A stretch of DNA of 64,000 nucleotides from a virus (Duplodnaviria > Caudoviricetes), in IMG/VR virus record IMGVR_UViG_3300046804_002724, positions 645 through 64,644 of that record, one strand, 5' to 3'. The position numbers were made by a program, and so were the translations under genes. A model generated the notes under the pieces. That model did no database searches. It saw only the letters and a program-made list of their open reading frames with translations, and was not told the origin of the DNA. Below are positions 1,597 through 57,086 of the stretch, piece after piece (within the stretch, counting starts at the first letter, position 1; each line of letters starts with the position of its first letter).

Positions 1597-2190
1597 ATGT
1601 TTTATAATGATGATAATGTACAGAAAATAAAAGAAGAAGGTGTATGGCTATATAAAAACTTTATATCAGAAGATGAATGTGCAAAAATATTGCATGAAGT
1701 AGATAAGTTTACTGATAAAGATTGGCAAGATGGCTGGGCCAGACATCAAGGAACATTGTTCTATTCCAATAGCCCAGAATCAGAAAAAGAAATTGAGGAG
1801 TGGTGGAATAATAAAGTAAGTCCGCCAGTTTTAATACCAACGATTACAAACATAAACAAAAAATTAAAAGATTTGTTTTCTCCAGAATTAATATTTTTGC
1901 CAGAGTATAAAATTGTAAGATTGGTTCCTGGCCAAAACATGAAAGGTCACAGAGATAACAGATCAGCAACAACTACATCTGAGGTTAAACAACAATTTAC
2001 AATATCTTGTGCCTATACACTTTACTTAAGTAATTTTACTGGCGGAGAAATAAATTATCCAGAAATTGGTTATACTCATGTTCCAGAGCCAGGCGATTTA
2101 ATCATTCACGGGGGAACAGTTTTTCACGAAGTTTTTGATGTATTAGAAGGCAATCGATATACAATCACTGGCTGGTTACTGAATAAGTAA
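1597..2190 (+). CDS. 2OG-Fe(II) oxygenase, prolyl-4-hydroxylase-like
   Basis: HRD, then YLSNFTGGEINYP, then HEVFDVLEGNRY (HxD..H..R). The ATG at 1597 follows GGAG; the ORF track starts at 1585. Confidence 0.88.
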   Translation: MFYNDDNVQKIKEEGVWLYKNFISEDECAKILHEVDKFTDKDWQDGWARHQGTLFYSNSPESEKEIEEWWNNKVSPPVLIPTITNINKKLKDLFSPELIFLPEYKIVRLVPGQNMKGHRDNRSATTTSEVKQQFTISCAYTLYLSNFTGGEINYPEIGYTHVPEPGDLIIHGGTVFHEVFDVLEGNRYTITGWLLNK

Positions 2191-2262
2191 ACCCCATACG
2201 GAGGCGGATCCATATGGGGTTTATGCACTTACGTGCCAGTAAGGAGCAAAGCTCTACTTACA
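2187..2262 (-). ncRNA. Candidate ~75-nt three-hairpin small RNA
   Basis: Own promoter TTGACT-N17-TACAAT on the minus strand (2297-2269). Three consecutive hairpins, including a GUAA tetraloop and a 14-bp terminal stem that is fully paired (U-G) only on the minus strand. Confidence 0.6.
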
Positions 2263-2268
2263 GTATTT

Positions 2269-2297
2269 ATTGTATTTTATCTTTTTTTCAAAGTCAA
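2269..2297 (-). promoter_or_regulatory. Promoter TTGACT-N17-TACAAT
   Basis: Plus-strand agtcaa at 2292-2297 and attgta at 2269-2274. Confidence 0.65.
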
Positions 2298-3033: not shown

Positions 3034-3600
3034 CTAACTCTTTGGAAACTCTAAAAGCCACTTTTTAGTTTCTGGCGTTAAGCCTTTCCACGATGACCAA
3101 TCTTTGCCGCCATTAGTCATATAATACGTTATCTCTGCGTTGATTACTGGATCAAATAACGTGTAGTTACTGTCCAGGTTGAATTTCTCTTTACGATCAT
3201 CGCCAAGGTTTCCCAGCATGTTGATCTGAAAAATTCCGTAGGAACTGTCTCCAGTATTCCTGTTGCCGTTATAAGCCATTGGTCGTCCATGGGATTCCTT
3301 TTTAGCTACGGCCCACGCCATTTTAAGGGCGTTTCCTTCAAAACCTACATAAGATAATAACTTTACCAAGTCTTTATCTGTAAGTGCCTCTGAAGGCTTG
3401 TATACAGTATTGCTGAACTTTTCCAGCGTTTCTTTTTTCAGTTGTGCTTCTGTTTTACTTATCTCTGGCTTTATAGTCAGAGCTGATGCATTTGGAATTA
3501 TATTATCTTGTCCTGAAAACAAAAAAATAATTAATATTCCAATTGCTGTCCAATGATGTACAACATCGCTGAACTTTTCTTTTATATTCTCCATTGGCAT
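3034..3600 (-). CDS. Lysozyme-like/lytic transglycosylase with N-terminal membrane anchor (probable endolysin)
   Basis: AVAKKES catalytic Glu motif and SYGIFQINM motif; hydrophobic segment WTAIGILIIFLF. GGAGG precedes the ATG at 3600. Confidence 0.8.
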   Translation of the reverse strand: MPMENIKEKFSDVVHHWTAIGILIIFLFSGQDNIIPNASALTIKPEISKTEAQLKKETLEKFSNTVYKPSEALTDKDLVKLLSYVGFEGNALKMAWAVAKKESHGRPMAYNGNRNTGDSSYGIFQINMLGNLGDDRKEKFNLDSNYTLFDPVINAEITYYMTNGGKDWSSWKGLTPETKKWLLEFPKS

Positions 3601-3693: not shown

Positions 3694-3809
3694 ATAATTA
3701 CATATATTTTTTAACAAAAAAAATAAAAGTCTTCCTTTCTATATTTTTTTTTGGTAGAATTAATATCTTAATTTAAATTTATTAACCGCAAGGCGGAGAA
3801 AAGGTATAT

Positions 3810-5744
3810 ATGTCAAAAACTATTGAAAACCCATATGAAAACTTTATTGCATTATCAAGATATGCAAGATGGATCCCAGAAGAAAATCGTCGTGAAACAT
3901 GGGGTGAAACAGTAGATAGATACTTTAGTTTTATGTTAGATCATCTTTTTGAAAACTATAAATATGAACCAGATTCTAAGTTGATAGAAGAACTTAGACA
4001 AGCAGTTTATGATAGAAATGTTATGCCATCTATGAGATCTGTAATGACTGCAGGTCCAGCTTTATCAAGAGACCATGTTGCTGGATACAATTGTTCTTTT
4101 GTTCCAGTAGATAGTCCAAGATCATTTGATGAAACCATGTATATTCTAATGTGTGGAACTGGTGTAGGGTTTTCTGTTGAATATAAGTACGTTAACAAGC
4201 TTCCATCTATTCCAGATTCTTTTGAAAAATCAGATACAGTTATTGTTGTAGAAGATTCAAAGCAGGGTTGGGCAAAAGCATATCGTGAATTACTTGCATT
4301 GTTATGGACAGGACATATTCCAGCAATTGATGTAAGTAAAGTTCGCCCAGCAGGCGCAAGACTTAAAACAATGGGTGGACGTTCTTCAGGACCACAACCA
4401 CTAATTAATCTTTTTGATTTTACTATTGCAAAATTTAAAAATGCTTCAGGTCGTCAACTTAAGCCAATTGAAGCACATGACATTATGTGTAAGATTGGTG
4501 AGGTAGTAGTTGTTGGAGGTGTTCGTCGTTCAGCAATGATTTCTCTTTCAAATATAAATGATATTGAGATGGCAGCAGCTAAATCAGGAAATTGGTGGGA
4601 AAATAATCCACAACGTGCTTTATCAAATAATTCAGTTGCTTATTCTCGTAAACCAGAAATGGAACAATTTATTGCAGAATGGAAATCTTTATATGATTCT
4701 AAATCAGGAGAACGTGGAATCTATAATGTCGCAGCAGCACAAAAACAAGCTTCTAAATTTGGACGTAGAGATCCAGAAATTCATTATGGCACCAACCCTT
4801 GCTCCGAAATTATTCTTCGTCCTTATCAATTTTGTAATCTTTCAGAAGTCGTATTACGTGAAAAAGATACACCAACAACTGTTGCAGAAAAGGTACGCCT
4901 AGCAACAATTCTTGGAACATGGCAATCTACATTAACAGACTTTAAATATCTTAGAAAAATATGGAAAGACAATACCGAAGAAGAAAGGCTTCTTGGAGTT
5001 TCTCTTACGGGGCAGTTTGGAAACAAATTTTTTTCAGGAAAAGAAGATTTAAAAAAACTTGAAGAAACTCTTTCAGGACTTCGTGATTATTCACGAGAAA
5101 TAAATAAAGAAGAAGCTGAAAAGATTGGAATTAAAGAATCAGCAGCCATTACTTGTGTAAAACCATCTGGTACGGTTTCGCAATTAGTGGGAGTTTCTTC
5201 TGGAATGCATGCATGGCATTCTCCTTATTATATTCGTACTGTACGTGGAGATAAAAAAGATCCATTATCAACATTTTTAAAAGAAGTTGGGATTCCCGTA
5301 GAGGATGATGTAATGAAACCAAACGATACTTATGTTTTTTCATTTCCAGTAAAAGCTCCAGAAGGAGCGGTAACTAGAAATGAATTGACAGCTATCGAAC
5401 ATTTAAATACTTGGTTAATTTATCAACGTGCTTGGTGTGAACATAAACCATCAATTACTGTTTCAGTTAAAGAACATGAATGGATGGAGGTTGGAGCGTG
5501 GGTATATAAGAATTTTGACGAAGTCTCTGGAATTTCATTTTTACCACATTCCGATCATACTTATAAGCAAGCACCATACCAGGAAGTAACTAAAGAACAA
5601 TATGAGGACCTTCTTTCAAGAATGCCTAAGAATATTCGTTGGGAAGATTTGTCATTTTATGAAACTGAAGATGGAACATCTACAAATGCAACATTAGCAT
5701 GTAGTTCTGATGGAAATTGTGAACTTGTAGATATTACAGCATAG
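3810..5744 (+). CDS. nrdJ: Class II (adenosylcobalamin-dependent) ribonucleotide reductase, monomeric RTPR type
   Basis: YNCSF, NPCSEI, CNL, TCVKPSGT and C-terminal ACSSDGNC motifs; no beta subunit gene nearby. Confidence 0.93.
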   Translation: MSKTIENPYENFIALSRYARWIPEENRRETWGETVDRYFSFMLDHLFENYKYEPDSKLIEELRQAVYDRNVMPSMRSVMTAGPALSRDHVAGYNCSFVPVDSPRSFDETMYILMCGTGVGFSVEYKYVNKLPSIPDSFEKSDTVIVVEDSKQGWAKAYRELLALLWTGHIPAIDVSKVRPAGARLKTMGGRSSGPQPLINLFDFTIAKFKNASGRQLKPIEAHDIMCKIGEVVVVGGVRRSAMISLSNINDIEMAAAKSGNWWENNPQRALSNNSVAYSRKPEMEQFIAEWKSLYDSKSGERGIYNVAAAQKQASKFGRRDPEIHYGTNPCSEIILRPYQFCNLSEVVLREKDTPTTVAEKVRLATILGTWQSTLTDFKYLRKIWKDNTEEERLLGVSLTGQFGNKFFSGKEDLKKLEETLSGLRDYSREINKEEAEKIGIKESAAITCVKPSGTVSQLVGVSSGMHAWHSPYYIRTVRGDKKDPLSTFLKEVGIPVEDDVMKPNDTYVFSFPVKAPEGAVTRNELTAIEHLNTWLIYQRAWCEHKPSITVSVKEHEWMEVGAWVYKNFDEVSGISFLPHSDHTYKQAPYQEVTKEQYEDLLSRMPKNIRWEDLSFYETEDGTSTNATLACSSDGNCELVDITA

Positions 5745-56345: not shown

Positions 56346-56770
56346 ATAACAAAATACATAAAGTATTAAGTTATTCAAGAGCAAAAGATGAATTAATTGC
56401 TTGGTGTTATCCAGAAAAAAAACGTGTATTGTATTCATATTCTCAAGTTATTAAAAATATGGAAAATGCTTATTCAACTAAGCAGGTTGCACAAATATTG
56501 AATAAGCATAAAATAACAATTGAAGATTATATATTAGAGAAGAAAATTAAATATCCTCAAAAGGTATATCCAATTGGAAATCCTGAGAGTGACTGGTATA
56601 AATTTATGTATAGCGAATCAGACATTATGGACATACATCAATTTATTTTAGAATCTGGATATTCAAAAAACATGCCTTCTAAAACTGAGTTAAGGGCACT
56701 TCTCAAAAATAATATTATATTGTATACTAAGACTGATTCTGGCTTTGTGCCAGTATGGAAGGCGGATTAA
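56291..56770 (+). CDS. MerR/excisionase-like HTH DNA-binding protein
   Basis: YSTKQVAQILNKHKITI..Y...I..P...YSESDI. Confidence 0.7.
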   Translation: MAGKSRKQQAKRFSYFFLNNKIHKVLSYSRAKDELIAWCYPEKKRVLYSYSQVIKNMENAYSTKQVAQILNKHKITIEDYILEKKIKYPQKVYPIGNPESDWYKFMYSESDIMDIHQFILESGYSKNMPSKTELRALLKNNIILYTKTDSGFVPVWKAD

Positions 56771-56877
56771 TGTCAAGCAGAGTTGTTGTCTGTGAGATAT
56801 GTAAAAAAGAAATAGAATTGCGTTGGGGCATATTTGGTCACGACACATTGAGTAGACATAGAAAGGCGGAACACTAA
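56770..56877 (+). CDS. 35-aa C2H2-like zinc-finger micro-protein
   Basis: MSSRVVVCEICKKEIELRWGIFGHDTLSRHRKAEH; TAATG overlaps on both sides. Confidence 0.75.
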   Translation: MSSRVVVCEICKKEIELRWGIFGHDTLSRHRKAEH

Positions 56878-57086
56878 TGAATAAGAACACTCAGGTTAGA
56901 GTAGATCTTTCTTTTACTAGAAATCTTGGTAACTTCGAAAGTATTAAGATTGGTATTGGCGTTGACGATTTTGTTAGAGATGGCGAAACCGTAGATGATG
57001 CTACTGAAAGAGTTTATAAATTTGTAGAAGCTAAGCTTATATCTAAAACTCAAGAAGTAGAAGAAGAACTAAATGGCAACAAATAA
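56877..57086 (+). CDS. Hypothetical protein (NLGNFES.KI type)
   Basis: ORF track; translationally coupled. Confidence 0.78.
   Translation: MNKNTQVRVDLSFTRNLGNFESIKIGIGVDDFVRDGETVDDATERVYKFVEAKLISKTQEVEEELNGNK

Follow-up and report, generated by a model that had tools for sequence, protein, structure and literature searches.

The 64,000 nucleotides (nt) analysed here, referred to below as the window, make up 64.0 of the 64.6 kb of a phage genome whose G+C content is 34% (IMG/VR record IMGVR_UViG_3300046804_002724). We report that the minus strand of the window between positions 2182 and 2297 almost certainly encodes, to judge by its sequence and predicted fold, a structured small RNA (sRNA) which is conserved among related phages and represents a new phage sRNA family. 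The loop of its terminator hairpin quite possibly acts as an antisense repressor of genes which carry the variant Shine-Dalgarno (SD) sequence AGGCGGA, namely dnaE and a few early or replication genes. We put this forward tentatively, with the nrdJ gene and a micro-gene as doubtful targets and with the AGGCGGA box as an element that exists independently of the sRNA.

Architecture of the sRNA gene

A sequence-only reading of the same DNA had proposed a minus-strand promoter, TTGACT-N17-TACAAT, followed by an RNA of about 75 nt with three hairpins, the last of which would be perfect on one strand only. All of these elements are in place at 2297-2269 and downstream, although we predict a slightly longer RNA of about 80 nt (2182..2266). 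The -35 hexamer TTGACT (2292..2297) and the -10 hexamer TACAAT (2269..2274), separated by a 17-nt spacer, jointly score 10 of 12 as a sigma-70-type promoter and predict a transcription start at about 2262-2264; many relatives have TTGACT in the corresponding position. The RNA comprises hairpin 1 (GUAAG-UA-GAGC-UUU-GCUC-CUUAC, 2239..2261) with an outer stem, a 2-nt 5' bulge and an inner GAGC/GCUC stem, hairpin 2 (GCAC-GUAA-GUGC, 2225..2236) with a 4-bp stem and a GUAA tetraloop, and hairpin 3, a 14-bp terminator stem-loop (2189..2222) which exposes the hexaloop UCCGCC (2203..2208) and is followed by a U-tail. It matches the covariance model R1 described below with 73.8 bits (E = 3e-16).

The minus-strand RNA folds with a predicted energy of -37.7 kcal/mol (z = -6.0), which none of 200 shuffles reached, and the plus-strand fold is weaker (-34.6 kcal/mol, z = -4.2), with a C.A mismatch in place of a minus-strand G.U pair. 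The stem of hairpin 3 runs directly into UUUACUUAUU, as expected of an intrinsic terminator, and its inner part was scored terminator-like on the minus strand. With a promoter and a terminator of its own the element would thus, as far as can be read from its sequence, form an independent transcription unit.

Conservation of the sRNA family

The first gene of the minus-strand cluster that ends at the element encodes a lysozyme-like protein with 2373 metagenome homologues, and 80 viral loci anchored on this protein were taken for comparison. In 62 of them a same-strand hairpin of at least 7 bp with the loop A-[UCCGCC]-U lies downstream, its stems differing by compensatory changes. The 51 distinct sequences were aligned with MAFFT and the alignment was used to build the covariance model. 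RNAalifold assigns 24 pairs to three helices, and 21 of these have changed on both sides (all six modelled pairs of hairpin 1, all four of hairpin 2 and 11 of the 14 in hairpin 3). Pairing is possible in 95.4% of the paired cells, as compared to 76.9% in shuffled alignments and at most 45% when the 3' partners are slid, and none of 500 shuffles matches any of the observed covariation measures. Moreover, the pair beside the loop (alignment columns 84/95) is most commonly G.U (30 of 51 sequences), which on the other strand would be A.C.

The model recovers 64 of the 80 anchored loci, every one on the strand of the lysozyme-like gene, and scores 41-90 bits on the sRNA strand as opposed to at most 29 bits on the reverse strand. 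A further 80 loci, for which the anchor was a lysozyme-like protein only 61% identical to that of the window, yield 65 matches. Strong matches are single in the window and in the relatives G001 and G003, a weaker one is present in G002, and G005 has none. When viral contigs were scanned for the loop-and-stem pattern without an anchor, at least 121 stretches were found, and of 80 loci fetched from among these, 78 match the model in full, with all three hairpins. The same pattern occurs in at least 121 stretches of bacterial genomes, none of whose 80 fetched loci matches the model (E <= 0.01), so that these are chance occurrences in GC-rich genomes; we do not claim on this basis that the family is absent from bacteria. 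The family is carried by over a hundred related phage contigs, none of them from a cultured phage, and one run that contains relatives is labelled freshwater. A close relative, IMGVR_UViG_3300047546_002119, is 98.8% identical to the window, unchanged across 2161-2393 and too close to be informative. Beyond the paired positions, relatives share a hairpin 1 signature (GGUYGAG...CUCC), GNRA- or UUCG-like loops in hairpin 2 and the U-tail after hairpin 3.

Searched with Rfam 15, the whole window gave a tRNA only (335-409), and five relatives' loci likewise gave tRNAs only. For the region 2100-2400 at E <= 10 the only matches were to the terminator part, rli38 with 22.4 of 49 bits and ClpQY_promoter with 18.3 of 42 bits, both below the gathering thresholds and regarded as chance. 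Neither the Rfam scans nor a literature text search, which did not extend to supplements, found the family in print, and a text search with the motif words returned unrelated primer and small interfering RNA papers only.

The invariant loop and variant forms of the element

The eight invariant columns of the alignment (A55-T62) are exactly A-UCCGCC-U, that is the hexaloop together with its A-U closing pair (2209/2202 in the window). UCCGCC is present in all 64 model matches of the first anchored set and in 57 of the 65 of the second. The remaining eight carry CCCGCC and form one tight clade (L613, L617, L619, L636, L638, L649-L651; also G066:C1:72907-73000) with differing hairpin 1 and hairpin 2 sequences. 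The clade has a TTGACT promoter of its own, seen in G066, a complete 111-kb genome with terminal repeats. A stem that is kept while its loop drifts, which the sequence-only reading had named as the sign of a plain terminator, is thus the opposite of what is seen: apart from the CCCGCC clade the stems covary around a loop that does not change, and this argues against a plain terminator. The loop would also be readily accessible, as opening is predicted to cost 0.0 kcal/mol for the six loop bases and 1.4 kcal/mol for seven.

Conservation extends to the promoter. Among 56 distinct upstream regions, 36 reach at least 9 of 12 matches to a sigma-70 promoter and 28 reach at least 10, compared with 6.7% and 1.5%, respectively, of 2000 control positions. 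The geometry is constant in the relatives (TTGACT, 17 nt, TAnAAT), the -10 hexamer ending 6-10 nt 5' of hairpin 1. It is this conservation that carries the promoter call, because in the AT-rich window itself promoter-like matches are not enriched (21 seen, 17.8 expected).

About one third of the relatives have no clear promoter. In two reduced forms (L052:3091-3164 and G018:C1:62103-62176) hairpin 3 alone, without promoter, hairpin 1 and hairpin 2, directly follows the end of a gene, and in G002 (L090:6786-6854) hairpins 1 and 3 are present without hairpin 2. Given the promoter-less relatives and the forms reduced to hairpin 3, the element may in some lineages be a hairpin borne by a 3' untranslated region (UTR). 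Other relatives (L012, L028-L037, L044, L050, L053-L056, L060, L061, L072 and L082) have a long hairpin 1 with a conserved C-rich apical loop, AUCCCACC, possibly a second seed or binding site; GGUGGA-type boxes, with which this loop would pair, show no enrichment at the ribosome-binding sites of those whole genomes that were searched. In many relatives, among them L023, L039, L055 and L064, an extended -10 promoter (TGnTATAAT) lies 3-35 nt past the sRNA terminator and leads into same-strand genes, a place that is taken in the window by a convergent oxygenase gene.

AGGCGGA boxes at ribosome-binding sites

The complement of the hexaloop and the next base (UCCGCC-U), AGGCGGA, occurs 13 times in the window, always on the plus strand, where dinucleotide shuffles predict 1.67 copies and none of 100 shuffles reaches 13. 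Eight of the 13 copies are in-frame GGC-GGA codons for Gly-Gly, a confounding effect of which the sequence-only reading had itself warned. Of the 127 Gly-Gly codon pairs in the genome 35 are GGC-GGA, more than any other pair and compared with the 9.3 that codon usage predicts, so that the excess of AGGCGGA over the shuffles is largely due to coding sequence. The codon-pair bias has a counterpart in GGA-GGA (19 pairs, 32.5 expected) and GGA-GGT (6 pairs, 19.4 expected), consistent with an avoidance of internal GGAGG. At ribosome-binding sites (positions -22..-3 of 496 open reading frames (ORFs) in five genomes) AGGCGGA is found nine times and AGGAGGA 12 times, AGGUGGA and AGGGGGA once each, so that a central C is favoured over U or G; genome-wide counts in the same five genomes are 78 for AGGCGGA, 66 for AGGUGGA and 13 for AGGGGGA. 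In the window and the relatives G001-G028 the box stands at normal SD spacing, 2-8 nt, before roughly 1-4% of the ORFs, also in genomes that have no sRNA.

In the window AGGCGGA precedes the four starts to which the sequence-only reading had drawn attention, at distances of 6 nt (dnaE), 6 nt (gene 56877), 3 nt (micro-gene) and 12 nt (nrdJ). The best candidate target is dnaE (box 60562..60568). Within 25 nt of the dnaE start 66 of 80 relatives have AGGCGGA and 71 have GGCGGA, the box being placed 2-8 nt before the start codon, and none of the 80 leaders contains GGAGG or AGGAG, while the flanks vary widely. So strong a conservation upholds the claim of a box at the dnaE ribosome-binding site, which by this comparison of leaders is clearly under selection. 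The box of gene 56877 (56864..56870; gene at 56877-57086, phrog_5189) lies inside the 3' end of the preceding micro-ORF and is kept in most of 80 relatives, with the variants AGGCUGA, AGGCGGC and canonical AAGGAGC. A box at dnaB is present in five of ten genomes with the sRNA and in none of four without it.

The micro-gene is a weak candidate, its box (56760..56766) being situated in the last codons of a phrog_9440 gene. The micro-ORF itself (56770-56877) encodes 35 amino acids with a CxxC...H...H motif, overlaps the stop and start codons of its neighbours in TAATG junctions and is kept in most of 80 relatives. In the nrdJ leader the 3' arm of a hairpin, CCGC-AAG-GCGG (3786..3797), holds the AGGCGGA, which is present in 54 of 78 relatives. 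This hairpin may serve to stabilise the 5' end or may be regulatory by itself. An extended -10-like sequence, TGGTAGAAT, is found in the same leader at 3752-3760.

Pairing of box and loop is calculated to yield -11.8 kcal/mol and that of the box with the anti-SD -5.3 kcal/mol, whereas canonical AGGAGGA gives -9.8 kcal/mol with this anti-SD and -6.1 kcal/mol with the loop. Opening of the target would cost about 2 kcal/mol at dnaE and gene 56877 and 4.7 kcal/mol at nrdJ. With an initiation term of 4.1 kcal/mol included and the strain of the 6-nt loop excluded, the net estimate comes to about -4.4 kcal/mol at both dnaE and gene 56877, -5.4 kcal/mol at the micro-gene and -1.7 kcal/mol at nrdJ. What we take to be resemblances to 16S rRNA (its 3' end and an internal UCCGCCU segment) were set aside; a given 7-mer occurs in 1.5 kb by chance in about one case in ten.

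Co-occurrence of sRNA and boxes

Presence and absence of sRNA and boxes were compared in 27 genomes, four of which lack the sRNA and probably form one clade: G005 (98% complete), G015 (83%), G019 (100%, with terminal repeats) and G021 (96%). In one of the four the syntenic position is taken by a plain terminator. A further 36 contigs, fragments without the lysozyme-like gene region, were left out of this table. Contigs with GGCGGU-type dnaE boxes, considered for a test of compensatory change, do not include the sRNA region. The dnaE core GGCGG is kept in 22 of the 23 genomes with the sRNA and in two of the four without it. Where the dnaE box differs in genomes with the sRNA, the changes are mostly A to G at both of its ends, and a G can still pair with U.

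Several observations weigh against repression by loop-box pairing. The dnaE association reaches only about p = 0.05, one-sided and uncorrected for kinship, and the four sRNA-less genomes look like a single clade. AGGCGGA is about as frequent at ribosome-binding sites in genomes without the sRNA (6 of 712 ORFs, four genomes) as in those with it (18 of 1167 ORFs, nine genomes), and G005 and G015, both without the sRNA, keep their dnaE and nrdJ boxes. A box that persists in sRNA-less genomes has a reason beyond the sRNA, and AGGCGGA evidently functions, on this comparison, as a ribosome-binding element by itself. Conversely, G057 has the sRNA together with a canonical GGGAGGA at dnaE. Gene 56877 carries AGGCUGA in all four sRNA-less genomes and also in G030 and G041, which have the sRNA; a correlation of AGGCUGA with absence of the sRNA was considered for this gene and rejected for that reason. 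Furthermore, the CCCGCC clade has no matching AGGCGGG boxes: its dnaE box is AGGCGGU and two other sites read AGGCGGA, as judged from the complete genome G066 and from a contig whose 7.3-kb overlap with G061 is 100% identical, five further contigs of the clade being without dnaE. A 6-bp core of AGGCGG with CCGCCU is still possible in this clade. The check on relatives that the sequence-only reading had proposed therefore came out divided, in that the loop is conserved and the boxes show no compensating change where it varies.

The individual targets add to these difficulties. At the micro-gene AGGCGGA is found in a minority of the 80 relatives and is replaced in the others by AAGCAGA, AGGCAGA and the like, a drift such as synonymous sites show. 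At nrdJ the box is one arm of a local hairpin which itself covaries (CCGC/GCGG, CUGCC/GGGCAG, UCCA/UGGA, UCCG/CGGA), and it has been lost in at least seven loci that retain the sRNA. Since the local hairpin explains the box and the box is lost where the sRNA is kept, nrdJ lends the pairing no good support, and the inclusion of both genes among the targets has become doubtful. The seed is short as well, 6-7 bp within a tight 6-nt loop, and about 35 in-frame GGC-GGA sites in coding regions could compete for it. The metatranscriptome run X1, the sole RNA run with relatives, is kept as contigs and has no cover on 2182-2300, which speaks neither for nor against the sRNA, since contigs cannot show a small RNA.

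Genomic context

Nearly all genes of the window are on the plus strand. The sole sizeable minus-strand gene cluster runs from 3633 to 2277; its first gene encodes a protein of 199 amino acids with an SLT/lysozyme-like domain, and the four ORFs after it are small. The sRNA element is placed where this cluster meets a convergent 2OG-Fe(II) oxygenase gene of the plus strand, in a gap of 86 nt, and the oxygenase stop codon (2188-2190) lies within hairpin 3. Pfam has no family for the four small ORFs beside the lysozyme-like gene, and in the same scan no RNA-binding protein candidate was recognised among the small ORFs adjoining the element. We considered and dropped the label 'lysis cassette' for this cluster, the support for which consists of the SLT/lysozyme-like domain and an N-terminal hydrophobic stretch only, the small ORFs being without a Pfam family. 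The annotated parts of the genome show neither an integrase nor a repressor context.

A tRNA-Ile gene with the anticodon TAT is located at 335-410 of the window, and in the relative L072 four tRNA genes (L072:4716-5016) lie directly 3' of the sRNA. The DnaE-type polymerase (60575-63844) has its nearest relatives among cultured phages in Streptomyces phages (56% identity), although the genome has only 34% G+C. In the freshwater-labelled run X1 (0.11 word share) contigs match the window at 3097-3598, in the lysozyme-like gene, and at 3810-4165, in nrdJ; as they are mostly 85-99% alike to the window they largely stem from relatives.

Discussion

How might a terminator loop select its targets? We propose that host RNA polymerase would transcribe the sRNA from its own sigma-70-type promoter and that the transcript would fold into three hairpins, of which hairpin 3 would serve as its intrinsic terminator. 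The exposed hexaloop and the next base would then pair with the variant SD AGGCGGA 2-8 nt before the start of dnaE and of a few other early or replication genes, and by masking these ribosome-binding sites the sRNA would lower or time their translation and leave genes with a canonical SD alone. Such selective masking would follow from the pairing energies, because the box pairs poorly with the anti-SD and perfectly with the loop. A discrete transcript, the meeting of loop and box, and repression as the outcome are steps that we infer. The earlier idea of a trans-acting regulator that shuts down or times DNA-synthesis genes is thus sustained by the conserved sRNA, its invariant loop and the conserved dnaE box, and it is weakened by the boxes that exist without the sRNA and by the loop variant without compensating box changes. 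A more far-reaching version, which we think somewhat unlikely, is that a subset of variant-SD genes (dnaE above all, dnaB, gene 56877 and others) constitutes a private ribosome-binding code which is weak for the 16S anti-SD and is switched by one sRNA loop. In that case the box might predate or outlive the sRNA, which would explain the sRNA-less lineages.

But why should the loop be so strictly conserved if the boxes do not depend on the sRNA? The element could be a genuine structured sRNA whose invariant loop is recognised by a phage or host protein, or by a host RNA, the complementarity with AGGCGGA being coincidental or secondary. An invariant loop on a covarying stem, as seen here, is also typical of protein-binding hairpins, for example boxB and coat-protein operators. 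The persistence of boxes without the sRNA and the loop variant without a compensating box change would both fit this explanation, and so would the second conserved motif in hairpin 1 (GGUYGAG...CUCC, or the long form with AUCCCACC), which pairing with the boxes does not explain. Recognition of the loop would, however, not predict that its complement is one of the few over-represented non-canonical heptamers at ribosome-binding sites, nor that this complement is kept before dnaE in 66 of 80 relatives, and the neighbouring small ORFs include no RNA-binding candidate that Pfam recognises. On balance we consider such a recognition site rather doubtful as the whole explanation.

The position of the element, in a short gap between convergent genes and with the oxygenase stop codon inside the hairpin, is just where one would look for a bidirectional intrinsic terminator that also stabilises the 3' end of the lysozyme-like gene cluster and has no role in trans. 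The GC-rich stem and U-tail of hairpin 3, part of which was scored terminator-like, are in keeping with this, as are the third of the relatives without a clear promoter, the forms in which hairpin 3 by itself directly follows a gene (L052, G018) and the one genome with a plain terminator at the same place. For such a terminator, on the other hand, an invariant 8-nt loop and closing pair, two more covarying hairpins and a conserved promoter at a fixed distance would be superfluous, and the selection on one strand, evident from the G.U pairs, is at odds with a bidirectional element, which makes this explanation improbable. We deem it most improbable that the element acts as DNA, be it as a single-stranded hairpin in replication or packaging or as a duplex protein site that shares the AGGCGGA word. 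DNA hairpins generally tolerate G.T pairs and all 13 copies of AGGCGGA have one orientation, but the latter follows from the nearly exclusive plus-strand location of the genes and from the Gly-Gly codons; a promoter, a U-tail and three covarying hairpins suit a transcript, and the element lies where a gene cluster ends, neither at a genome end nor in a repeat.

Trans-acting sRNAs encoded by phages are known from a handful of cultured model phages only. The family described here is supported by covariation, comprises well over a hundred copies, is absent from Rfam and appears to be widespread in uncultured phages. If loop-box pairing holds true, it would be a clear example from nature of translational control that singles out a class of genes by a variant SD which an sRNA matches, and a second, independent example of a terminator loop that serves as seed. 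As the system is small, two-plasmid reporters and compensatory mutants could test it directly.

The mechanism proposed for the phage sRNA is the same as that of RNAIII, RsaE and related RNAs of Staphylococcus aureus, in which C-rich loops, including that of the RNAIII terminator hairpin, pair with G-rich SD regions and block initiation. Different from the phage sRNA, these RNAs are host-encoded, larger and unrelated in sequence, and their UCCC motif is directed at ordinary SDs, whereas the phage loop fits the variant AGGCGGA and pairs poorly with a canonical SD. A phage-encoded precedent for an exposed segment which pairs in trans at the ribosome-binding site is provided by c4 of P1 and P7 and by CI of P4, small phage RNAs that pair over the ribosome-binding site and shut off phage genes. 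These are processed from the leader of the operon that they control and serve lysogeny control, whereas the phage sRNA mostly has a promoter and a terminator of its own; the matches that the full Rfam scan lists for 2100-2400 at E <= 10 do not include the C4 family, to which c4 and CI belong.

In the E. coli sRNAs SdsR, RseX and ArrS the loops of the intrinsic terminators drive regulation, according to the part of that study considered here, 'likely without base-pairing', by acting on the structure of the fepA 5' UTR and with a need for Hfq and RNase E (PMC11979758). As far as that account goes, they share with the phage sRNA that the loop of the terminator hairpin is the functional determinant; they differ from it in that the basis proposed here is a perfect 7-nt complement of a ribosome-binding site, and there is no relation in sequence. 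The phage sRNAs treated in the passages of PMC12197685 on which we draw are lambda OOP and aQ, P22 sar, lambda PreS, VP882 VpdS and 24B_1. OOP, aQ and sar are described there as cis-antisense RNAs, and PreS and VpdS as Hfq-dependent RNAs that use linear seeds on host mRNA targets (PMC12197685). Like the sRNA proposed here they are phage-encoded and time phage development, and PreS acts on a replication gene, host dnaN; unlike it, none is described in those passages as having a terminator-loop seed or a variant-SD regulon (PMC12197685). With ordinary rho-independent terminators, lastly, the element shares the GC-rich stem and the U-run at the end of a gene cluster, and it is set apart from them by its invariant hexaloop and closing pair, its two extra covarying hairpins, its own promoter and the selection on one strand.

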